A DNA stretch of 61,994 nt from a virus. Taxonomy: Duplodnaviria; Caudoviricetes. This document shows, in pieces, positions 25,529 to 58,909 of the stretch; within the stretch, counting starts at the first letter, position 1, and the number at the start of each line of letters is the position of its first letter. The notes beneath the pieces are model-generated. The model worked only from the letters and a program-made list of their open reading frames with translations, was not told the origin of the DNA and searched no databases. The position numbers and the translations under genes were made by a program. The stretch lies in the IMG/VR virus record IMGVR_UViG_3300012930_000013, positions 1 to 61,994 of that record, one strand, 5' to 3'.

Positions 25529-25912
25529 ATGGCAAAGAGTCTGTTCGTTGGAACCGTACCGGCGACCATCAGCGTGATCGTGGAGGCGAAGGACGAGGAG
25601 TCGGCGTCCGAGGCGATCAAGGTCGCCGTCCGGGCTGCGCTCGGGTCGACCCTCGGCGTCATCAGCATCATCGGTGAACCCAAGGTCGCGTCGATGCCAA
25701 TCGCCGGCAAGAAGGCGAAGGTCGATGACAAGGAGGAAGAGGACGACGAGGAGGAGGAAGAGGACGACGAGGAGGAGGAAGAGGACGACGAGGAGGAGGA
25801 AGAGGACGACGAGGAGGAGGAAGAGGAGGAGAAACCTGCTCCGAAGAAGACCGACAAGAAGCCGGTCAAGGACGACGGCAAGAAGAAGATCAAGATCAAA
25901 CTGAAAGGATAA
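25529..25912 (+). CDS. Small protein with long acidic tract and basic C-terminus
   Basis: (EEEEEDD)n tract followed by KPAPKK...KKKIKIKLKG. Confidence 0.65.
   Translation: MAKSLFVGTVPATISVIVEAKDEESASEAIKVAVRAALGSTLGVISIIGEPKVASMPIAGKKAKVDDKEEEDDEEEEEDDEEEEEDDEEEEEDDEEEEEEEKPAPKKTDKKPVKDDGKKKIKIKLKG
25731..25827 (+). repeat. 21-bp tandem repeat (about 4.5 copies) encoding the acidic tract
   Basis: Unit gaggaggaagaggacgacgag repeated in tandem. Confidence 0.85.
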
Positions 25913-25920
25913 CTAAGAAG

Positions 25921-28900
25921 ATGAGCGACCGCGCGCCCGTACAGTTCGCTGAGACGCCGAAGCAAGCTCGGCGTTTCATGGATGAGCTTTACCGAGAGGC
26001 ATACCTCCCGGGGAAGATCACCGCGGTCGACACCGAGTTCGTCCCGATCTCGAACGAGCCGGTCCTGCTGTCCTACTCGTGGGGCCGCGGGGTCCGGCGC
26101 GTCGTCCGCTCCGAGCTGGTCAAGGACCACTTCGGCGACTGGCTGGTCGACCCTCAGACCAAGCTCGCCTACCAGAACTACAAGGCGGATGTCGAGACGA
26201 TGGAGAGGCTCGGCATCCCGCCGACCGAGCTCATCCACAGCTTCTACATCGACACGATGGTCACCGGGGTGCTCCGCGACGAGACCCTGATGCAGCATGG
26301 GCTCAAGGCGCAGATGTTCCACTTCTTGAAGTGGTTTCGCCGCGAGTACGGGCAGCTGTTCTGCTATGTACCACCCGGCAAGAAGAAGGCGATCGTCATG
26401 GACCCGAGGCAGGTCATGGATGGTCTGCCTGACGACGCGCTCACCGACGCGGTGACCAAGTGGGGTGGAGCGAAGGGAGGACACAAGGTCGGCCCGCGGA
26501 GCGCTGAGCAGTGGCGCCAGATGATGATCGACTATGCCGGCGACGACGCCGAGGGGACCCAGATCCTCGCGGTCGACCACCGCAGGTACCTCAGGAAGAC
26601 CGACTACTGGGACAAGTATGTCGACGTCGACCGAGTGTTCACGAGTACCCTGATGCAGTGTGGGGTAAGCGGGGCGTTCCTCGACCAGCCGGTCCTGCGC
26701 AAGATCCTGCGCAAGCAGGACATCCGCATCATGCGCGCCGAGCATTGTTTCCGCGCCGCGGCGGGAGACCCAAAGCTCAAGCTGCGCTCTCGCCCTCAGA
26801 TGAAGAAGCTGTTGTTCGACGAGTGGGGTTGGCCGGAGCACCCGACGATCGAGACCGACAGCGGCGGAGTCTCGATGGACGGGGAGGTCCTCACCTGGTG
26901 GTTGAACGAGCACAAGCTCGCGATGGCAGGAGTTAAGCTCGCGTTCAACAACGCGGCTACCATGAAGGGTACGTTCCTTGAAGGACTTCTTTCAGGAGTA
27001 AGTGATGATGGACGTCTGCGAAGTGATCTGAATCAGATCGGTGCGAAGACATCTGGAAGAATTAGTTCACGTAAGTTTGAGAAGTTGATCGAGATCACTA
27101 AGACACTCAAGAATGGAGAAGTAAGGACGCAAGTCAAGAAGAAGAAGGTCGGCGCCAACCTTCAGAATATAATCGCTCGGAAGGAGAAGGACCCCGATGG
27201 GGTCCGCGGTGCGTTCCGGGCGCCACAACTTGGAGAGGTCACCGCATGGGGTGTACCGGCTACCGAGTCACACAAGCTGATCGTCGCGGATTACTCAGGG
27301 TTCCACCTCGTGCTTGTCATCCACTTCACAGCGAAGCTGACCAAGAAGTCGGCAATGCTGGAGATCATGCGGAAGTACAAGACGCCGAGCGCGGTGCACG
27401 TGTACACGACGATTCAGATGTTCAAGCACACGGCTCCACACAGATGTGACTCGGACTCGTACTCGTGCAAGGACAAGAAGACCGGCGAGTGGAAGAAGTT
27501 CCACGGCGAGAACAAGGTGTACTCCTTGAGCGAGTTCACCATGGATGACTGGAAGCTAGTCAAGCCGCTCTTCCCGGACCAATATACCTATAGTAAAAAC
27601 TGCGTCACCGGCGAGACGATGATCCTCACTGATCATGGATACAAGAGGATTGACGAGCTGTGCGTCGGCGCTCCTCTTGGTCGCTCGAAGCCGGCGACAC
27701 CCATCCGGATCGTAACGCGGGACGGGATTCGCGACGTCGCGGACGTCTACCGGGGTGGCAAGCAGCCGGTGAAGAAGCTGACGACTGAGCTCGGGTTCGC
27801 AGTGCGCGCGAACGACTCACATGACATGCCGGTGGTGCGCGGAGGTAAGATCGAGATGGTGAAGGTCGGCGACATGGTGGTCGGAGACATCTGCGTGATT
27901 AAGTTCGGCAGCAACACCCACGGGCGGGTAACTCAGATTCCAGCGATGGCGCAGGGAGGCATGACGAGCTACAAGCCGCTCGACCTTCCTCGTGAGCTTA
28001 CGCCGGAGGTTGCCAGGTTGCTCGGGTACTATGTGTCGGAGGGTTTCTCGATGAAGTCAAACACGATGTACATCACATCGTTCGGCTTCGGTTATCAGGA
28101 CGATGACATGGTGCTCGACGTCGAGCGGTGCTTGCGATTGGTGGCTGGTTCCCGTCTCAAGCAGCACGATGGTGCGAAAGCGCGCAGGTACTACATCACC
28201 AGCAAGGACCTCTACGAGTGGTGGCGGTTCCTCGGATGTGGCACGTCATCGGCGGACAAGCAGATCCCGCCCTGCGTGCTCGGTGCACCATGGCCAGTCA
28301 AGCGGGAATTCTTGCGCGCATACTTTGCTGGAGACGGAAGCATCTGCGACGGTGTCATCAAGGCAACGAGCAAGTCAGAGCTTCTCATTAGGCAGATCCA
28401 AGGCGAGTTGATCAACATCGGCATCGCGTGCTCTGTGTTCTCTGGTGAAGTTGGTGAATACGGGATTTATTGGTCGATCCAGATATCGAGCAGCAGCTAC
28501 GTCAAGAGGTTCTCCGAGTACATTGGATTTTCCTGTAAGCGCAAGCAGGATCTGGCGGAGCGGGTGGTGATCGCTAACCCGCGTTCCACACTGGTCATCG
28601 AAGGGTTCGACGTCGAGTACGAGCTGATCCAGAAGAAACTGTTTGGTGGTGTGAGGAGTCGGATGTCACAGGTGACCCGCGGTACGTGCAGGCTCGGTGA
28701 AGTCGTGGTTCAAAAAATCGACCCTGAAGCACTCGTTGGGACCGAGATCGAGAAGATGCTCAACGATGGGTTGTGGACGGTTCGCGTCACGTCGATCGAG
28801 CCTGATGGTGATGCAGAGGTTTTTGACCTCTATGAGCCAGTTCATAAGATGATGGTTGCTAGCGGTCTTCTTGTAGGTGACACCAACTTTGCCCTTATCT

Positions 28901-29457
28901 TCATGGGATCTCCTTGGACGCTGGCATACAACACAGGACGAGATGCTAACGACGAGGAACAGCTCGATGAGTGCAAACGACACTATGATGACTGGTACGA
29001 GCTGTACCCGGAGATCAAGCAGTACCAAAACTGGGCAGTCGATCACGGGTATGAGCATGGTTGGGTTCCGACCATCGGCGGCAGGCGTGGCCACGTCCGT
29101 AAGATGCTCGAGGGGTGCGATCGAGACGGCAGGTATATCCAAGACGACGACAAGCGGAAGAAGATGATTAAGCACGGTGAGCGTGTGTGCACGAATACCG
29201 TCGCTCAAGGATCCGAGGCTGACATCGTGAAGATGGCGCTCAACCTCATCCGCCTATCGCCGAAGATGATCGAGTTCCGTTGTGCACCGCTGTTTCCTGT
29301 CCACGACGAGATCGTGAGCGAGGGTCCCGAGCGGACCTCCGTCGCCAGCCTCGAAGAGCAGATCCGCCTGATGAAGGAGCCGTACAAGGACGAGATGGAG
29401 GTCGAGCTAGCAGTGGAGGGTGGAATCGGGGACAACTGGATTAGTGGCAAACCGTAG
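25921..29457 (+). CDS. polA: Family A DNA polymerase with 3'-5' exonuclease, intein-containing
   Basis: ExoI AVDTE, ExoIII YAGDDA; TSGRISS, NLQNI; motif A ADYS; motif B SKN|TNFALI; NTVAQGSEADIVK; motif C VHDEI. Confidence 0.9.
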   Translation: MSDRAPVQFAETPKQARRFMDELYREAYLPGKITAVDTEFVPISNEPVLLSYSWGRGVRRVVRSELVKDHFGDWLVDPQTKLAYQNYKADVETMERLGIPPTELIHSFYIDTMVTGVLRDETLMQHGLKAQMFHFLKWFRREYGQLFCYVPPGKKKAIVMDPRQVMDGLPDDALTDAVTKWGGAKGGHKVGPRSAEQWRQMMIDYAGDDAEGTQILAVDHRRYLRKTDYWDKYVDVDRVFTSTLMQCGVSGAFLDQPVLRKILRKQDIRIMRAEHCFRAAAGDPKLKLRSRPQMKKLLFDEWGWPEHPTIETDSGGVSMDGEVLTWWLNEHKLAMAGVKLAFNNAATMKGTFLEGLLSGVSDDGRLRSDLNQIGAKTSGRISSRKFEKLIEITKTLKNGEVRTQVKKKKVGANLQNIIARKEKDPDGVRGAFRAPQLGEVTAWGVPATESHKLIVADYSGFHLVLVIHFTAKLTKKSAMLEIMRKYKTPSAVHVYTTIQMFKHTAPHRCDSDSYSCKDKKTGEWKKFHGENKVYSLSEFTMDDWKLVKPLFPDQYTYSKNCVTGETMILTDHGYKRIDELCVGAPLGRSKPATPIRIVTRDGIRDVADVYRGGKQPVKKLTTELGFAVRANDSHDMPVVRGGKIEMVKVGDMVVGDICVIKFGSNTHGRVTQIPAMAQGGMTSYKPLDLPRELTPEVARLLGYYVSEGFSMKSNTMYITSFGFGYQDDDMVLDVERCLRLVAGSRLKQHDGAKARRYYITSKDLYEWWRFLGCGTSSADKQIPPCVLGAPWPVKREFLRAYFAGDGSICDGVIKATSKSELLIRQIQGELINIGIACSVFSGEVGEYGIYWSIQISSSSYVKRFSEYIGFSCKRKQDLAERVVIANPRSTLVIEGFDVEYELIQKKLFGGVRSRMSQVTRGTCRLGEVVVQKIDPEALVGTEIEKMLNDGLWTVRVTSIEPDGDAEVFDLYEPVHKMMVASGLLVGDTNFALIFMGSPWTLAYNTGRDANDEEQLDECKRHYDDWYELYPEIKQYQNWAVDHGYEHGWVPTIGGRRGHVRKMLEGCDRDGRYIQDDDKRKKMIKHGERVCTNTVAQGSEADIVKMALNLIRLSPKMIEFRCAPLFPVHDEIVSEGPERTSVASLEEQIRLMKEPYKDEMEVELAVEGGIGDNWISGKP
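27601..28881 (+). mobile_element. Intein (427 aa) with LAGLIDADG endonuclease, inserted in polymerase motif B
   Basis: Starts CVTGETMILT; block B His (NDSH); LLGYYVSEG and FLRAYFAGDGS; block F VFDL; ends LLVGD followed by Thr; removal restores SKNTNFALI. Confidence 0.9.
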
Positions 29458-30803: not shown

Positions 30804-31757
30804 GTGAAGAGCAGCAAGGAGAGCAAGAAGCACAAGCACGACGACTCCGACGACCTCGACGAGATGCGCGAGGCGTTCAAGAACCACCAGAACCGAGCCA
30901 AGGGTGGAGGAGGTTCTGGTAACACCTTCGCCAAGCTCGAGAAGGGGAAGAACCTCTGCTACTTCCTCCCGATACCCGGTCAGCGCAAGTTCTACGCGGA
31001 GGGCTGGACCCACTTCCAGGTCGGCCCGAACGAGCGCGCCGTCCGGTGCGTCGACGAGGCGCACATCGACGCAGAGCGGGGCCTGCCGCAGTCGGGCACG
31101 AAGTGCCCTCGCTGCAAGCGGTTCCTGCGCGAGCAGGCCCGGATCAACAGCGAGTATGAGAAGGGAGACGAGGATGGTCGTGCGGAGTGGAAGGCCGCGA
31201 AGGACAAGTACGTCCCGCGTCACCAGTACTACAGCAACGTCCTCCGCGAGGACGACGACGGCGACTTCGAGGTGAAGATCCTCCCATATGGTCCTCAGGT
31301 CTGGGGGCAACTGATGAACTTCTACATCGGCTCCGACACCGACGTCGGTGACTTCACGGACCCGAAGTCTGGGAAGTGGCTGAACATCAAGAAGGTGGAC
31401 AAGGGTGGGCGGAACCGCCGCAACGTCGAGTACCAGGTGTTCCCGGTCGACGGTCCTAGCATCTCGAGTACGTGGGCAACGATCAAGGACGCCCTCCACG
31501 ACCTGGACGCGGCGCGCGGCAAGGTCCTGTCTCTGGAGGAGTTCGTCGCCGTCGAGAAGGGTGTCGACGTCGACAAGGACTCTGACGACGATGACGACGG
31601 TAAGCATCGCCGCAAGCGCTCTCGCGCGGAAGACGATGAGGACGAAGACGCCGAGAGCGACGATGGTGATGATGAAGAAGAGGAGGAGGAAGACGCGGTC
31701 CGCACCGAGCGGTCCAAGCTCGCCGTCAAGATGAAGAAGCGCCGGCGGGACGACTGA
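30804..31757 (+). CDS. gp32-like single-stranded DNA-binding protein
   Basis: HF...C...CPRC zinc ligands; YYSNV; GDFTDPKSG; acidic C-terminal region; adjacent to RecA. Confidence 0.75.
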   Translation: MKSSKESKKHKHDDSDDLDEMREAFKNHQNRAKGGGGSGNTFAKLEKGKNLCYFLPIPGQRKFYAEGWTHFQVGPNERAVRCVDEAHIDAERGLPQSGTKCPRCKRFLREQARINSEYEKGDEDGRAEWKAAKDKYVPRHQYYSNVLREDDDGDFEVKILPYGPQVWGQLMNFYIGSDTDVGDFTDPKSGKWLNIKKVDKGGRNRRNVEYQVFPVDGPSISSTWATIKDALHDLDAARGKVLSLEEFVAVEKGVDVDKDSDDDDDGKHRRKRSRAEDDEDEDAESDDGDDEEEEEEDAVRTERSKLAVKMKKRRRDD

Positions 31758-41557: not shown

Positions 41558-42039
41558 GCATCATCAAGGTACATAGACCAGTGTTCTGCCTCTACCACGA
41601 CATGCCTGTGGTGACGTGGCAGGTAGGCGACGGGCCGATCCGCACCGACGTCAACATGCTCGCCCAGTACCGAAGCTGGCGCTCCGGCAGTTGCGGGAAG
41701 CACGAGCCTGCGCCTGTGTTCTGGGAGTCGCGCGGGCCAGAGGTTGTCCGCGCCCTGGAGTTCTGCGGCGCCGCGGCGGTCATCCTCGAGCACGTCGGCG
41801 ACCGGCGGGTCGCATACCTCTGGTTCGCGCGCGAGCGGGGGTTATTCTCAGGATCGGAGGAGTTCCGCGTCTGCTCGGTCAGCGTCGAGGGTGGCACCAG
41901 GGGTTTAGCATCCCGCGTGACGGTCACCCTGCCGACGGATGAGGACGTCATGTTCACGTTCAGCTGGAACCAGATGCAGCTCTGGCGCAAGCCGGACGTG
42001 GCAGACGGCGTCGCGGTGTCACAGGTGCAGGCCCCGTGA
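41554..42039 (+). CDS. Hypothetical protein
   Basis: AAGGAG RBS; GTGA coupling. Confidence 0.45.
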   Translation: MSIIKVHRPVFCLYHDMPVVTWQVGDGPIRTDVNMLAQYRSWRSGSCGKHEPAPVFWESRGPEVVRALEFCGAAAVILEHVGDRRVAYLWFARERGLFSGSEEFRVCSVSVEGGTRGLASRVTVTLPTDEDVMFTFSWNQMQLWRKPDVADGVAVSQVQAP

Positions 42040-42695
42040 TCACCAAGCCGAGCGTCATGGCTCGCATCCTGGCCGCCACCGCGGGCGCGCCATACGAGCT
42101 CGAGCACCCGGAGCTGACCCGGCACGCGCCGTTCAAGGTCGTGTGCGCAGATCCTCCGTGGCCGTTCGGGGACTCTCTTCCCGGACCAGGGCGCGGCGCT
42201 GCGAAGCACTACGGCGTGCTCAGCTTGGACGACATCAGGAACCACAGGTTCGTCGGAGGCGAGGTGCTCGACCCGCGGCGCGACCTCGTCGCGGACGACG
42301 CATACCTGTTCCTGTGGCGCGTGAGTGCCGGGGCCGACATCGCCACGCTCACCTTCGCGGAGGAGGCATACCAGGTCGCCCGCGCGTGGGGCTTCGCGCC
42401 GAAGACCGAGGTCGTGCTGCGCAAGCAGACGAAGAACGGGAAGCGTCACTTCGGGATGGGCTGGCACATCCGCAACGAGCACGAGACCTGTGTCCTCGCG
42501 GTCCGCGGCAAGCCGAAGCCGCTGGTGCAGAACATCCGGTCGGTGATCGAGGCGCGGGTCTCGCGTCGTCACAGCGCCAAGCCCGAGGTGTTCTACACAG
42601 ACATCGTGGAGAAGATCAGCGACGGGCCGTACGTCGAGCTGTTCGCGAGGAGCACGCGTCCCGGCTGGACCTGCCTCGGCGACGAGGTGCCGTGA
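42036..42695 (+). CDS. MT-A70 family N6-adenine methyltransferase
   Basis: ADPPW, YLFLW, AWGF, GMGW..RN.HE, HSAKPE, YVELFAR..RPGW. Confidence 0.9.
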   Translation: MITKPSVMARILAATAGAPYELEHPELTRHAPFKVVCADPPWPFGDSLPGPGRGAAKHYGVLSLDDIRNHRFVGGEVLDPRRDLVADDAYLFLWRVSAGADIATLTFAEEAYQVARAWGFAPKTEVVLRKQTKNGKRHFGMGWHIRNEHETCVLAVRGKPKPLVQNIRSVIEARVSRRHSAKPEVFYTDIVEKISDGPYVELFARSTRPGWTCLGDEVP

Positions 42696-48269: not shown

Positions 48270-48577
48270 CGGTTGCACCAGCACTCGCAGCCGGTCACGA
48301 AGCACCTCGGCTGCAACGCGCCGGCCGCGTGCTCAGCGCTGCACGTCTTGCACTTGAGCTGTGCTTCTTCCCGCAAGCCTGCACCTCGCAGCTTCATGGC
48401 CGCCGCTCGGCAGACGTTGCAGTCCGGCTCGAGGTCGTTGTTGTCGGGTTCGAGCGTCGCCGCGCTGGAGACCAGTCGTCCACACAGCGTGCGGTGCTGG
48501 TCTACCGTCTCGTGCGAGATGCACGGCGCTGTGTCACTGCGGAACGAGCTCGTGAACACCACGTAGAAGCGGGTCAC
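48266..48577 (-). CDS. Cys-rich hypothetical protein
   Basis: TLCG...DCNVC...CKTC...CECWC. Confidence 0.4.
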   Translation of the reverse strand: MTRFYVVFTSSFRSDTAPCISHETVDQHRTLCGRLVSSAATLEPDNNDLEPDCNVCRAAAMKLRGAGLREEAQLKCKTCSAEHAAGALQPRCFVTGCECWCNR

Positions 48578-49164
48578 CGGAGCTACTCGGTAGGTGTCCG
48601 CGGCTCGGCCGCCGGTTGCCAGAGAGGGTCGAGGAGGACGCGGCACGCGTCGGCGAAGTCCACCCACTCAGGCAGATCCGGGTCGCAGGCCCCGCGCGCC
48701 CTCGCGCGGAGCAGCTTGAAGTGCCGGTGGAACCAGTCCCCGTCCCATGGCATCCCAGGACACGAGAGCCGGTACGAGACCACGGACATCCGGGCGATGC
48801 GCCCGGCGAACAGGTCGGCCGTCACCACCGCTGACCCATCGCCGCGGAGTGGCGGACCTTCGCCGAGATCCGGCACTCATCAACGACCCGCGCGACCTCC
48901 CCGTTCGCGTGGGCCGCCCACCGGGCGACCGACTTGGCTCGGTGCATCAGCTTGAGGTCGGACGCCATCTTCATGTCGACGCCGATCTTCTTCCAGTAGT
49001 TCATCGTGTTCCTTTCGCGGGGCAGAGCTTGTTGCCCGCGTTGTGCCCCAGCACCCCGCAGGCTCGGCAGGTGATCTTTGCCCGGTGAGGAGCCGGACCC
49101 TTCGGTTTGACCTCGCTGACGAGGCCGGAACTGATCTTCCACGAGGATGACGGCTTCGGGAGCG

Positions 49165-49722
49165 TCACCGCGGCCTCGGGTGCCCGCCGACCACGTGGTC
49201 GACGACCACCGTGCAGGCTCGCGTGGGCTCTTCCCAGCGCGCCGCCGGGACCTCCTGCAGGGCATTCGCGGTCCTGGCCTGCTCCGTCGCGAGCTGGCCG
49301 CGGAGCAGGTCGTTGTCCCTCGCGAGCTGACCCGCGTCGTACTTCGCGACGTCGAGCTCGCCTCGGAGGCTCTTGACCTCGTGGTCAGCCGCGTCGAGCA
49401 GCGTGAGCACCGTGAGCAGCTGGGAGCAGAGCGCGGAGACGTCGGCCTGGTGGTAGAGGTGCGTCGCCGCCGCCATCCGGTCGAGCCCGTCGCACAGGCG
49501 CGCCACCAGGCGACCGCCGCGGGACTCGTCGCCGCGCAGGAGCTCCGTGCCTCGGCGCGCGAGCACGCGCAGCCGGCGCACGTCGTCGCGGTCGACGGCG
49601 GTGATCCGCCTCGCCTCCTGGTCAGCCTGGGCGACGAGCGCGGCTGACCGGCGGAGGCGGCCCCGCGGGGTCTCGGCCGGCACGCGGGTCGCGAATAGGT
49701 CGGTTCGGGTGTGTACTGACAT
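49165..49722 (-). CDS. Hypothetical coiled-coil protein
   Basis: ORF from ATG 49722; AAGGA upstream. Confidence 0.45.
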   Translation of the reverse strand: MSVHTRTDLFATRVPAETPRGRLRRSAALVAQADQEARRITAVDRDDVRRLRVLARRGTELLRGDESRGGRLVARLCDGLDRMAAATHLYHQADVSALCSQLLTVLTLLDAADHEVKSLRGELDVAKYDAGQLARDNDLLRGQLATEQARTANALQEVPAARWEEPTRACTVVVDHVVGGHPRPR

Positions 49723-52391: not shown

Positions 52392-54146
52392 CTACTCGAA
52401 GCTGAACCCGAACCTTGACGACTTGGAGAGCTTCTCTAGGCCGAGGAGGGCCGACGCGAGCGCGTGTGCCAGGTGGTCGTCGCCGCTCGACTTGACCGTC
52501 TCGACGATCTCCTTGGTCTCCTCGTCGATCTCCTTGAATGGGGCGAGCGCCTTCAGGTGCTTGGTCAGGAGCTGCATCTCCGGGAGCTCCAGGTTCGGCA
52601 GCCCGAACTCGCGCTCCCGGATCGCCCGGCACACGTTCTTGAGCGTGAGCGTGCGGTCTACGGTTACTCGCGCGCGCTCCGGGTCGCTCCACTCCGGGAC
52701 GAACGTCTTGCCGTGCTTGGCGCTCGAGTTGTACCACTGCGCCCAGAACTTGCCCTCGTCGCCGTTCGGCGACAGCCTGCGCAGCAGGAGGGAGTTGCGG
52801 TCCTTACCGTACCCGGCGTCGGCGATGGTGATGTCGGGGTTGAATGCAGAGAGGTACTTGTAGACGAGCTCTGCGCTCTCCATCTCTCGGTCGGTGTCTT
52901 CGACGATTCCGATCCCGATGAGGTACGGGCGCTGGTTGACAGAGTTGCGCCCAACGACAACCACCCAATTGAACTGGCCCCAATCTACGCCGACTGCCAC
53001 TTGTGTCCATCCTCGCGTGCGCGCCGTCTTCAGCTCGTGCCCGGAGCACGCGCGTACGAAGTCAGCGTCGCTGAGCATCTCGAGCTCACCCGCCGCTGGG
53101 ATGCCGATTACATAGCAAAGCCAAATTTCTTTGAAGCGAAGATCGATCTTGTCTTGCATCACCTGCGTCGCGCTGATCCACGGCGCGATCAGCTGAGGCA
53201 GGTGGTACCCGCGGATGAGCTTCCGGTCCGGGTACCGCGCGACCCACTGGCCGGTGAACACGCGGTCGAGCTTGCCGCGGCACGTCCGCTTCCTGCACAG
53301 GTACTCGTAGCTCTCCGGCGGCAGCTCGCGCGCGCCGAGCGGGATGTCCTTGACCTGGATGATGTTGTCCGTGTGCGAGATCTCCTGCCACTCGCTGCAC
53401 CGTTGGCACCGCACCATCCACAGCCGCTGGTCGGACGCGCGGAACGGGATGTCGATCCCCTGGTTCGGTAGGGTCGGCGTGGAGATCTCGCGGAACAGCC
53501 GCCACTTCGAGCTCTTGAGGGACTCCTTGAACGCGAACTCGACCTTGTCGCGCATCCGGTCCTTCTCGTCGAGGACGACGACGTCCGCGTCGATGCCCTC
53601 GCCGAGGTTGCTCTCCCAAGCGGACCGGAACAACCAGTAGCTGTCGCCGACCCGCCGGGTGAACACCTGGTTCGGCGTGCCGGCGAGCGCGGCCATGCGC
53701 GGCGACTCCGCGAAGGAGGCCGCGACGCGCGTGTTGCTGAAGTCGATGAGCTGCTTGTCACGTGGGAACGTGGTCACGGCCTTCGTTCCCGGGTGCGTGG
53801 CCAGGAAGTGCCACACCTCGGCCGCCATGACCTCCGTACCTCCTGTCTGCCGGCCCTTCTCGTAGACCTTGTGGCGGTGCTGGTCGCGCAGAGGTTCGCG
53901 CAGGAACGGGCGGTGATGGAGCAACCGGCTGTACAGCTCGTTCTCGTAGTCGCTCTGGATGAGCGTCTGCCTGACCTTGCCGAGTGACTCCTCCGACAGC
54001 TTGCGCGAGTTGTCGAAGACGAGTGGCTCGCCCTTGACTCGCCGGTTGAGCATGCACCACACGACTGGGTCGCGCTCAGCCATGGCCTCCAGGCCGGACA
54101 TCGCGTCGGTGTCCGGGGGCAACTCGATGAGATCGGAGACCTTCAT
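52392..54146 (-). CDS. terL: Terminase large subunit (GpA-like)
   Basis: KGRQTGGTE Walker A, VVVLDEKD Walker B, ISTPT, CQRC..C zinc ribbon, RGYHLPQL, VGVDWG, GDDHLAHA nuclease motif. Confidence 0.9.
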   Translation of the reverse strand: MKVSDLIELPPDTDAMSGLEAMAERDPVVWCMLNRRVKGEPLVFDNSRKLSEESLGKVRQTLIQSDYENELYSRLLHHRPFLREPLRDQHRHKVYEKGRQTGGTEVMAAEVWHFLATHPGTKAVTTFPRDKQLIDFSNTRVAASFAESPRMAALAGTPNQVFTRRVGDSYWLFRSAWESNLGEGIDADVVVLDEKDRMRDKVEFAFKESLKSSKWRLFREISTPTLPNQGIDIPFRASDQRLWMVRCQRCSEWQEISHTDNIIQVKDIPLGARELPPESYEYLCRKRTCRGKLDRVFTGQWVARYPDRKLIRGYHLPQLIAPWISATQVMQDKIDLRFKEIWLCYVIGIPAAGELEMLSDADFVRACSGHELKTARTRGWTQVAVGVDWGQFNWVVVVGRNSVNQRPYLIGIGIVEDTDREMESAELVYKYLSAFNPDITIADAGYGKDRNSLLLRRLSPNGDEGKFWAQWYNSSAKHGKTFVPEWSDPERARVTVDRTLTLKNVCRAIREREFGLPNLELPEMQLLTKHLKALAPFKEIDEETKEIVETVKSSGDDHLAHALASALLGLEKLSKSSRFGFSFE

Positions 54147-57195: not shown

Positions 57196-57474
57196 CTATG
57201 ATCCTCCGTATTCAATGACCGCACCGTGCTGCAAGACGCGCGGTTTGTCCTTCACCAACTCATCACGGAAAAAATGCCGGTCGCGCTTGATGTCGAGGTT
57301 AGCGCGCTTGGTAGCGTGGCGCTCCTGCGTCGTGTAGCTGCGCTTGCAGACGACGAGCGGGTAGCGCTCATTGACCGCGAGCTCGACCGCCTCGGCCTTA
57401 CTCGCGGCGATCACGCACACCACGCCGCCGGTGTAGTCGCCGAGCGACTTCGGGTACCAGACGTACATCCTCAC
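57196..57474 (-). CDS. Hypothetical protein
   Basis: MYVWY...YTGGVVCVIAASKAEAV...YGGS; start uncertain. Confidence 0.4.
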   Translation of the reverse strand: MRMYVWYPKSLGDYTGGVVCVIAASKAEAVELAVNERYPLVVCKRSYTTQERHATKRANLDIKRDRHFFRDELVKDKPRVLQHGAVIEYGGS

Positions 57475-58469
57475 GACGTCATCTCCGGCGATGGGTCCAC
57501 GCCGAGCTGCTGGACGCGAGTGCGCTCGGCGTGCGCGTGGAGATGCTTGACCGCGGCCGGCAGCACGATCCTCCCCTTCTGGGTCCGCATGATGAGGCCG
57601 AGCTCGAGGAGCACGGGCTCGATGATGCCCTCGATCTGGCCGCGCTCGATGCCGAGCTGCGCGGCGATGGTGAGCACGCCGACCGGCGAGCCGAGTCGCT
57701 CGCACAGGACCCCGAGGTACTCGCGGTCCTTGGCGTCGAGCCCGAGCGCGTCGAGCCCGAGCGCGTCGAACGTGGCCTCGGCGACCTCGAGCGTAAGCGT
57801 CGCCTCGCCGGCGCTCTCCATAAAGTCGCGGCAGTTGCGCACGAGGCGGTTGGCGACGCGCGGCGTGCCGCGGCTGCGCCGGCCGATCGCGTCGGCGATG
57901 TTGTCGCAGAACACGTTCGTGCGCATCCCGAGCCGCTCCATGGTCTTTCGAGCGATGGTCGCGAGGTCCGGGACCGAGTAGTGCCCGAGCTGGAACGTGT
58001 ACGCGAAACGGTCCCGGAGCGGCCCGGTCAGCAGGTGCGCGCGCGTGGTCGCGCCGACCAGGGTGAAAGGCTGCAGCGGCAGGCGGACGGTGCGCTTGCC
58101 TGCGGACAGGTCGACGTGGCCGTCTTCCATGGCGGTGTACAGGAGCTCCTGCATCGCGGACTTGAGCCCATGGACCTCGTCCAGGAACAGCACGTCGTGG
58201 CGGCCGAGCGTGGTGAGCAGGCCGGTCAGCTCGCCCTTGTGCTCGATCGCCGTGGCGACCGCGGCGTGGAGCTTGGTACCCATTTCCGAGGCGATGATGT
58301 TCGACAAGCTCGTCTTACCACATCCTGCTAATCCGCTTAAGAGGACGTGGCTACACGCACGATCGCCGTGGCGGGCCGCGACCACGGCACGCCGGAGCAC
58401 GTCGATCGTCGCTCGCTGGCCGACGTAGTCGTCGAATGAGGCGGGGCGGATGTCCTGGTCCTTGCTCAT
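57471..58469 (-). CDS. ruvB: Holliday junction branch-migration ATPase RuvB
   Basis: IRPASFDDYVGQ, GLAGCGKT, LFLDEVH, LYTAMED, FTLVGATTR, PLRDRF, SRGTPRVANRL, EPVLL..GLIMRTQKGR. Confidence 0.92.
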   Translation of the reverse strand: MSKDQDIRPASFDDYVGQRATIDVLRRAVVAARHGDRACSHVLLSGLAGCGKTSLSNIIASEMGTKLHAAVATAIEHKGELTGLLTTLGRHDVLFLDEVHGLKSAMQELLYTAMEDGHVDLSAGKRTVRLPLQPFTLVGATTRAHLLTGPLRDRFAYTFQLGHYSVPDLATIARKTMERLGMRTNVFCDNIADAIGRRSRGTPRVANRLVRNCRDFMESAGEATLTLEVAEATFDALGLDALGLDAKDREYLGVLCERLGSPVGVLTIAAQLGIERGQIEGIIEPVLLELGLIMRTQKGRIVLPAAVKHLHAHAERTRVQQLGVDPSPEMTS

Positions 58470-58909
58470 GTGGTCCTCTTTTTTTCCTCTGTCTGCTTGA
58501 CCGCCTCGCCGATGCGATGAGCGTTCGTGATCTTCTCGAAGACCGGGAAACGCGTGGGCTCCTCGTGAGGCCTCGTCGACTCCTCTGGCAGGACCCCCGC
58601 GCGACGCGCGATCTCGAGTGCCTCCGCCCTCGATGCTCTGGTCTTGTTGGCGGCGAAGCGCTCCATCTGGTACAGCTGGCGCGCTTTGAACAACCAGGCT
58701 CGGATCGCCGCGAGGCGGTCGTGAGGTGCATCGCGGGTTCCGGCGAGCAACTTGTACTGCTCGTAGACCCGAACCGCATGCTCGACGTGTCCCGGCTCTG
58801 GCTTGCGCTCGGGTGGCGACCGCCACCAGTCCTTCGGTGGCAAGACTGACTCGACCGTCAGCTCTAGCTTGTGCTTGTAGTCTACCCACCACCCTGCAGC
58901 GTTTGCCAT
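58466..58909 (-). CDS. Hypothetical protein
   Basis: ORF coupled to the ruvB start. Confidence 0.45.
   Translation of the reverse strand: MANAAGWWVDYKHKLELTVESVLPPKDWWRSPPERKPEPGHVEHAVRVYEQYKLLAGTRDAPHDRLAAIRAWLFKARQLYQMERFAANKTRASRAEALEIARRAGVLPEESTRPHEEPTRFPVFEKITNAHRIGEAVKQTEEKKRTT

Follow-up and report, generated by a model that had tools for sequence, protein, structure and literature searches.

The nearest known counterparts of the enzyme analysed here are the Klenow, Bst BF and Klentaq large fragments of bacterial DNA polymerase I. In family A polymerases, Glu710, Tyr766 and Arg754 (E. coli numbering) are textbook fixed points of the nucleotide-binding pocket, and single mutations in Klenow or Taq cost fidelity or activity. 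In the closed Klenow complex, the carboxylate of Glu710 is reported to accept a hydrogen bond from Tyr766, and E710A, E710Q and Y766A are described as mutators that fail to close; Y766F is described as near wild type (PMC3715850). In Bst, E658 (the equivalent of E710) is placed 3.1 Å from C2' and hydrogen-bonded to the 3'-OH of the incoming deoxynucleoside triphosphate (dNTP) (PMC7200780), and Q797 (the equivalent of Q849) and E658 are described as near one another (PMC10520511). The motif B arginine is called non-mutable in Taq (PMC8599892), and an account that reclassifies PolA into 19 clusters reports strict conservation of the crucial catalytic residues (PMC10201439). Here we analysed polA, a family A polymerase gene of an uncultured phage. 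It lies on IMG/VR virus record IMGVR_UViG_3300012930_000013, which is 61,994 bases long, is rated 53% complete and was taken whole as the window.

Compared with the three large fragments, the window enzyme is alike in its architecture of 3'-5' exonuclease plus polymerase and in its fold, as judged from the model of a homologue, and it has D705, H734, K758, F762, Q849, the HDE of motif C and Exo I-III in common with them. It differs by His710, Phe766, Glu852, Tyr754 and Gly-Phe at 708/709, and it adds a 26-amino-acid hairpin after the TGR motif, a fingers insertion with Cys and His residues and an intein in the O-helix. On balance, we favour a joint reading in which polA encodes a proofreading family A replicase from a high-GC lineage of uncultured phages that carry contractile-tail genes, and in which the Glu710-Tyr766 pair would have undergone a charge-conserving rewiring by His, Phe and Glu852. 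The new element is the co-variation of three residues in a PolA subfamily without the O-helix arginine; the kind of enzyme is itself known. The reading frame and the pocket motifs are the following:

25921..29457, plus strand: polA precursor reading frame, 1178 amino acids, a stop-free translation with exonuclease and family A domains and one intein
27289..27312, plus strand: motif A, DYSGFHLV, with D457 as the catalytic Asp and His462 (cac, 27304-27306) at the Glu710 position
27577..27600, plus strand: N-terminal half of motif B, DQYTYSKN, with Tyr555 (27583-27585) at the Arg754 position and Lys559 equivalent to Lys758
28882..28908, plus strand: C-terminal half of motif B, TNFALIFMG, with F990 equivalent to F762 and Phe994 (28900-28902) at the Tyr766 position
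29206..29229, plus strand: motif 6 on helix Q, QGSEADIV, with Q1096 equivalent to Q849 and Glu1099 (29215-29217) replacing Ala852

When 1.84 billion cluster representatives were searched exhaustively with a profile, 48,069 PolA-like proteins were found, and the best 150 of the 48,069 were used; together with the 94 proteins from a search with the N-extein and with that of the window, they made a comparison set of 226 distinct proteins, aligned to one profile. His occupies the gate position (710) in 65 of the 226, and these proteins form one clade (Shimodaira-Hasegawa-like approximate likelihood ratio test (SH-aLRT) support 100) whose most divergent members are about 65% identical to the window enzyme. 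Column-by-column comparison of this His clade with its Glu-type relatives revealed a third co-varying site that belongs to neither motif A nor motif B: QGSAAD is changed to QGSEAD, and Glu1099 stands at the position of E. coli Ala852 (QGTAAD in E. coli). Every His-gate protein carries Phe766 (65/65) and Glu852 (65/65; 63 via the profile alignment and 2 by hand, where a motif 6 intein masks the column). Among the 154 Glu-gate proteins, Tyr766 was found in 147, Phe in 5 and another residue or a gap in 2, and Glu852 in none (0/154). Across all 226 proteins, a His gate was never paired with Tyr766; Phe occupies that position in 71.

The same combination appears once more, with Gln in place of His. 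P0099, a protein of 695 amino acids on a metagenome contig of 3,056 bases, is the only Gln-gate protein of the set and carries both Phe766 and Glu852; its motif A reads D-Q-A-G-F-Q-L-V and its motif 6 QNAEAD. It sits in a separate clade (support 100), in which the protein nearest to it, P0096, combines Glu, Phe and Ala. Judged from its sequence and placement, P0099 is an independent origin of a non-Glu gate with Phe and Glu852. A third protein, P0064, is 69% identical to the window enzyme, is encoded by a genome of 119,160 bases and stands beside or inside the His clade, with Glu, Tyr and Ala together. In three trees built with the trait columns removed, one of them a quick search tree, P0064 falls between P0066, the basal His-type protein, and the remaining proteins of that type (SH-aLRT 94-96). 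In the approximately unbiased (AU) test, the tree that keeps all His-type proteins together was not rejected (p 0.62), and this constrained tree had a slightly better likelihood; two secure events were therefore counted, not three. A reversal in P0064 is not claimed, since the AU test leaves His monophyly standing despite the nested trees. Because Glu occurs with Phe five times and His with Tyr never, these data suggest that Phe replaced Tyr first and that the replacement of Glu by Gln or His then came along with that of Ala by Glu.

We propose that in the window enzyme the canonical hydrogen-bonded Glu710-Tyr766 pair would be replaced by His462, Phe994 and Glu1099. The carboxylate would have been relocated from motif A to motif 6 on helix Q, leaving the net charge of the pocket unchanged. 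Glu1099, one helical turn past Gln849, would orient and polarise His462, whose imidazole would block the 2'-OH sterically and partner the 3'-OH of the incoming dNTP, and Phe994 would need no hydroxyl, the hydrogen-bond acceptor being gone. The carboxylate is proposed to have moved to helix Q because Q849 and E710 are described as close and position 852 lies on the same helix: it is three residues after Gln849, within one long helix in the model of the homologue P0013. Such a move would account for the joint travel of the three changes and for the small residue at canonical 852 (Ala in 139/226). Gly-Phe at 708/709 and Tyr for Arg754 were already present in the subfamily before the window's clade rewired the pocket floor, and the enzyme would remain an ordinary dNTP-selective replicase on a different pocket architecture.

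Several points weigh against this proposal. The contact between His462 and Glu1099 is one that we infer from helix periodicity and the published closeness of Q849 and E710, and the dNTP selectivity of the His-clade enzymes is likewise presumed. E710Q alone is reported to weaken the closed complex of Klenow and to lower fidelity (PMC3715850), and fidelity or sugar selectivity may be altered in the His clade. The coupling rests on few events, two if the His clade arose once, of which one is a single protein on a 3,056-base contig; in addition, the free trees nest P0064 within the His clade, with the AU test at p 0.62. The loss of Arg754 has no identified compensation in an enzyme family in which the Taq arginine is described as non-mutable (PMC8599892), and triphosphate handling may really differ. 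Basic residues conserved in the Tyr754 group only, namely R384/K385 and the Lys-rich hairpin, lie in or next to the TGR insertion; as candidates for Arg754 compensation they were set aside, since nothing places them at the triphosphate.

The residue equivalences came from a profile of 27 homologues aligned with the Klenow fragment over the whole chain (E 1.8e-92); overall identity to Klenow/Bst-type large fragments is only about 20%. In the motif A region, D457 corresponds to D705, G460 to Q708, F461 to I709, H462 to E710, V464 to R712 and H493 to H734; from motif B onward, Y555 corresponds to R754, K559 to K758, F990 to F762, F994 to Y766, Q1096 to Q849 and H1128-D-E to H881-D-E. Once spliced, motif B reads QYTYSKN and then TNFALIFMG, with the intein between them. 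The initial annotation had located DYSGFHLV at 27289-27312, DQYTYSKN up to position 27600 and TNFALIFMG starting at 28882, had aligned six changes by hand (Q708G, I709F, E710H, R712V, R754Y and Y766F) and had listed D705, K758, F762, HDE and the Exo motifs as retained. All of these strings and residues were found, and the profile bore out every equivalence. Further features of the chain are:

26023..26040, plus strand: Exo I, AVDTEF (D37, E39), with D37/E39 invariant in 27/27 aligned homologues
26170..26196, plus strand: Exo II, YQNYKADVE (D90), from the Klenow profile alignment
26533..26556, plus strand: Exo III, YAGDDAEG (Y205, D209), from the Klenow profile alignment
27046..27075, plus strand: TGR motif region, KTSGRISSRK (R380 equivalent to Klenow R668), also an intein insertion site in relatives
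27076..27153, plus strand: Lys-rich insertion of 26 amino acids directly after the TGR motif, a gap in Klenow
27436..27510, plus strand: Cys/His-bearing fingers insertion, P-H-x-C-x6-C...W-K-K-x-H-G, not in Klenow
29299..29316, plus strand: motif C, VHDEIV (H1128, D1129, E1130), from the Klenow alignment

The reading frame matched Pfam DNA_pol_A (PF00476, 1.8e-35, split in two pieces) and the PHROGs DNA polymerase family phrog_17 (1.2e-50), and the match to DNA_pol_A_exo1 fell just below threshold (1e-4; 22.6 bits against a cut-off of 23.6 bits). Homologues of 748-750 amino acids align with polA from residue 1. Among the hallmarks of family A, the enzyme has the fold and sequence match, the motif A Asp, the motif C Asp-Glu, Lys758, Phe762 and Exo I-III; it lacks the motif B Arg754, with Tyr555 instead, and the Glu710-Tyr766 pair, with His462 and Phe994 instead. 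The modelled protein was P0013, an intein-less homologue that is 82% identical and has identical motif strings. Its AlphaFold model, built with an alignment of 88 sequences, had a mean predicted local distance difference test (pLDDT) score of 93.9 and a predicted template modelling (pTM) score of 0.91. A Foldseek search with this model placed the Bst and Klenow large fragments on top (target-normalised template modelling scores 0.79-0.86), and as far as the model and this search can show, the motif alignment was stable on modelling. In the same model the Lys-rich insertion forms a beta-hairpin (strands 387-396 and 402-411); it is present in the Tyr754 subfamily and missing from most Arg754-bearing PolAs. 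The fingers insertion spans about 19-25 amino acids depending on the alignment, is shared by the His clade and some of the Glu-type sister clade, and may be a small metal-binding knuckle.

The pocket changes differ in how widely they are distributed. Gly-Phe at 708/709 was found in 102 of the 226 proteins. At the R754 position, taken to lie four residues ahead of the motif B Lys, Tyr was found in 100 (98 of them in the Gly708 class) and Arg in 112, and Tyr is invariant there in 23/23 diverse subfamily members. Read from these distributions, Q708G, I709F and the loss of R712 are old changes, R754Y characterises a broad clade of uncultured phages, and E710H and Y766F are young, so that the six substitutions are of at least three different ages and not one coordinated event. 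The coordination that the initial annotation saw in all six thus holds for part of the set: E710H and Y766F always occur together, in one clade and with A852E, whereas R754Y and Gly-Phe spread well beyond the proteins with DYSGFH. Glu-type sisters from the same uncultured subfamily, P0067 and P0064 among them, have in common with the window enzyme the DYSGF core of motif A, Tyr754, the insertions, the intein sites and the kind of phage genome, and they retain Glu710, Tyr766 and Ala852.

The His clade retains the catalytic Asp, Lys758, Phe762, His734, HDE and every Exo motif. The gate residue is encoded by cac in the window and by the same codon in 12/12 related motif-A-covering loci of the His type, and by gag in the Glu-type locus; the path from gag to cac takes two nucleotide steps, via cag (Gln) or gac (Asp). 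Since the pocket changes are conserved across the His clade, they reflect neither decay nor an assembly error. The view of the initial annotation that the enzyme is not decaying therefore stands, the changes being real, conserved in all 65 clade proteins and under selection, and the worry that they might be private to this record is removed by the same 65 proteins and 12 loci.

The alternative that survives best, although we regard it as unlikely, is that the His/Phe/Glu pocket is an adaptation to another substrate, through sugar selectivity, a modified base or triphosphate recognition. The altered positions are those at which the sugar and the nascent base pair are reported to be checked (PMC3715850; PMC7200780), and the gamma-phosphate-binding Arg754 is lost as well. 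One of the closest known systems is DpoZ of the phages with 2-aminoadenine genomes, in phiVC8-like and Wayne-like forms. DpoZ has in common with the window enzyme that it is a proofreading phage PolA with Phe at the motif B position B4, equivalent to Tyr766, and this Phe is described as occurring in both DpoZ clusters and in no others; the authors of these accounts thought it unlikely to explain base specificity (PMC10201439; PMC8599892). Y766F in Klenow, moreover, is reported as near wild type (PMC3715850). The phiVC8 DpoZ is described as keeping the motif B Arg, R440, where the window has Tyr (PMC8599892), and a change at the steric gate goes unmentioned in the DpoZ passages of the two sources (PMC10201439; PMC8599892). 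The window enzyme does not fall within these clusters, no deposited phage PolA being more than about 30% identical to it.

Genes that would accompany an unusual substrate were sought in the window and in its relatives. PurZ (PF00709) was found in 0/5 records (the window and four His-clade relatives rated 40-76% complete), by a search whose control matched in 14/14 genomes; all five records are fragments, and its absence from the genomes is thus unproven. The idea of a DpoZ-like Z-genome, prompted by the shared Tyr766Phe, was rejected as unsupported on this result. ThyA, TGT/DpdA, dUTPase and dCMP deaminase were not found in the four His-clade records and one complete Glu-type genome. ThyX was found in 2/5 of these records, one His-type and one Glu-type, and therefore does not discriminate between the two. 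Pfam scans of the 70 window proteins and of 84 proteins of the 76%-complete His-clade genome (84 of its 104 predicted proteins; the 20 left out were shorter than 80 amino acids, crossed a piece border or were the polymerase) revealed no nucleotide-modification family and no gene of unusual nucleotide metabolism. Among the window proteins, a methyltransferase of the MT-A70 family (N6-adenine type; 42036-42695, 2.9e-15) was the one DNA-modifying enzyme to be recognised, and MT-A70 is not among the families listed for the 76%-complete relative. In addition, P0064, with Glu, Tyr and Ala, belongs to the same phage lineage. The inference of a modified base or altered substrate drawn in the initial annotation thus receives no support from the genomes: no sign of a special substrate was found in records of which most are fragments, and about half of the window proteins match no family, where a pathway could hide.

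Joint fixation of the three changes by descent, neutrally and with neither physical coupling nor function, is quite improbable. It would fit the facts that the association comes mostly from one clade of 65 related sequences, that the AU test allows a single origin and that the nearby positions 465, 469, 991 and 995 also differ between the clades. The sites are, however, highly conserved, with Glu710 in 154/154 proteins outside the two variant lineages and Glu852 in none of them; the combination of a non-Glu gate with Phe and Glu852 recurs in the unrelated P0099 lineage, and P0064 departs from its neighbours at all three positions together. E710Q alone is also described as deleterious in Klenow (PMC3715850). 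An inactive or decaying polymerase, with an unspliceable Gly-Asp intein or a pocket compromised by the loss of Arg754 and Glu710, is hardly credible: atypical C-terminal residues of the intein and the reported non-mutability of the Taq Arg754 equivalent (PMC8599892) speak for it, but the 1178-amino-acid frame is intact, the Gly-Asp/Thr junction is kept in 8 further intact-frame proteins, inteins that end in Asp are known to work (PMC4031507), an identical pocket is found in more than 40 intein-less alleles, Tyr754 is invariant across the diverse subfamily members and no other polymerase was found in the record.

The charge-conserving rewiring also has a possible functional extension. Brown and Suo are said to have described in 2011 ring-type (Tyr/Phe) steric gates in family B polymerases, family Y polymerases and reverse transcriptases. 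A planar ring, instead of a carboxylate, would block the 2' position in each case; the folds are unrelated and the analogy is one of function only. We consider it doubtful, but worth stating, that a Glu-oriented His serves as a ring-type gate in an enzyme that works without the gate Glu and the O-helix Arg, both regarded as near-invariant, giving a different sugar or fidelity profile (such as tolerance of ribo- or 2'-modified substrates or pH-dependent gating) that the phage exploits. If this were true, the three residues of the His/Phe/Glu852 pocket could be moved together, as a cassette, into Klenow, Bst or Taq. A natural alternative pocket kept over an entire phage replicase clade exposes the change of Ala852 to Glu, which is invisible to single-site mutagenesis. 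For enzymology, the gain is a defined three-residue set for dissecting how the sugar gate is built; for polymerase engineering, it is a new scaffold for altered-sugar substrates.

Members of the subfamily were found in metagenomes. A search with the N-extein gave 94 proteins, all metagenomic, several of them on contigs of 117-119 kb. The only relative rated complete is 118 kb long: P0067, of the Glu type, lies on a record of 117,941 bases rated 100% complete. A tblastn search of 50,697 phage records, made for the window enzyme and for two distant members of the subfamily, gave no PolA above about 30% identity; 20 kb of the window gave no match by megablast, and a search of one genome per species for 185,579 prokaryote species gave no member and only a 26%-identical fragment. 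No literature report of His at the steric gate (E710H, E615H, E658H or E480H) was found among the matches listed. The polymerase diversity known from metagenomes alone is large, as this Gly-Phe/Tyr754 subfamily with its two insertions and four intein sites illustrates.

The element that splits motif B is:

27601..28881, plus strand: intein of 427 amino acids (residues 561-987), from Cys561 (tgc, 27601) to Asp987 (gac, 28879-28881)

This intein carries two LAGLIDADG motifs and interrupts the O-helix, with Thr988 as the +1 residue. Its endonuclease domain matched Pfam LAGLIDADG_3 (PF14528, 1.6e-10) and PI-PkoII (4.9e-12), and tblastn of the intein matched annotated inteins of phage helicases, terminases and ribonucleotide reductases. 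The boundaries are exact: dozens of intein-less homologues are continuous over the site, reading ...QYTYSKNTNFALIF..., and the window has a 427-amino-acid insertion relative to them. The spliced motif B proposed in the initial annotation is therefore right. As in class 1 inteins, the element has Cys1, Thr at +1, a precise in-frame insertion (N560/T988) and an endonuclease domain; the C-terminal His-Asn of that class is replaced by Gly-Asp (...LLVGD then T, 28858-28884). The Gly-Asp/Thr junction is common to the window and all 8 other proteins with a motif B intein, and their frames are intact. Such an ending is a known, rare variant, inteins that end in Asp or Gln are described as still able to cyclise and splice (PMC4031507), and the intact frames and conserved junctions suggest that the polA intein splices.

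The polA family is an intein hot spot, with four insertion sites among 95 aligned proteins, all within catalytic motifs: after the TGR motif (8/95, with an HNH-type endonuclease), just before the catalytic Asp of motif A (2/95), in motif B (9/95, the window and 8 others) and between Gly850 and Ser851 in motif 6 (10/95). Some relatives carry two inteins at once. In the window polA, codons ending in A or T are enriched within 10 codons of the four sites (regions 27022-27081, 27259-27318, 27571-27600 plus 28882-28911, and 29185-29244), with 33 of 80 near the sites and 129 of 671 in the rest of the exteins (Fisher p 2e-5, by a test picked after the data had been seen). Relatives use G/C-ending codons at the same residues, with or without an intein. 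Co-conversion from a donor of lower GC content could have left these A/T-ending codons as tracts, or the homing sites could have been recoded.

The window has a high G+C content (0.58-0.70), and scans of all 70 predicted proteins revealed tail, baseplate and terminase genes and a replication and recombination module in addition to the MT-A70 methyltransferase. The module around polA is intact, as had been claimed at the outset, and includes UvsW-like and DnaB-like helicases, a Toprim primase, RecA, an Mre11-like phosphoesterase, a Rad50/SbcC-like ATPase and a PDDEXK nuclease. The polA reading frame is also, as stated then, the sole polymerase of the window: PF00476 matches no other reading frame, and a PF00136 search of the 61,994-base record gave zero matches. 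An AAA+ protein at 57471-58892 (minus strand) matched PHROG families annotated as clamp loader of DNA polymerase (4e-16), which is odd beside a replisome built on PolA, and no sliding clamp was recognised among the scanned window proteins. A RuvB-like protein was found in a related His-clade genome. The proteins flanking the polymerase, at 25529-25912 and 30804-31757, had no family match in the scans and carry long acidic or Lys-rich low-complexity tails (runs of E/D, then K-rich ends). Gene orientation switches at about 48500-49700, from the plus strand until about 48.6 kb to the minus strand from 49.7 kb; the large terminase (52392-54146) lies in the minus-strand block, and the cumulative GC skew ceases to rise where the orientation switches.

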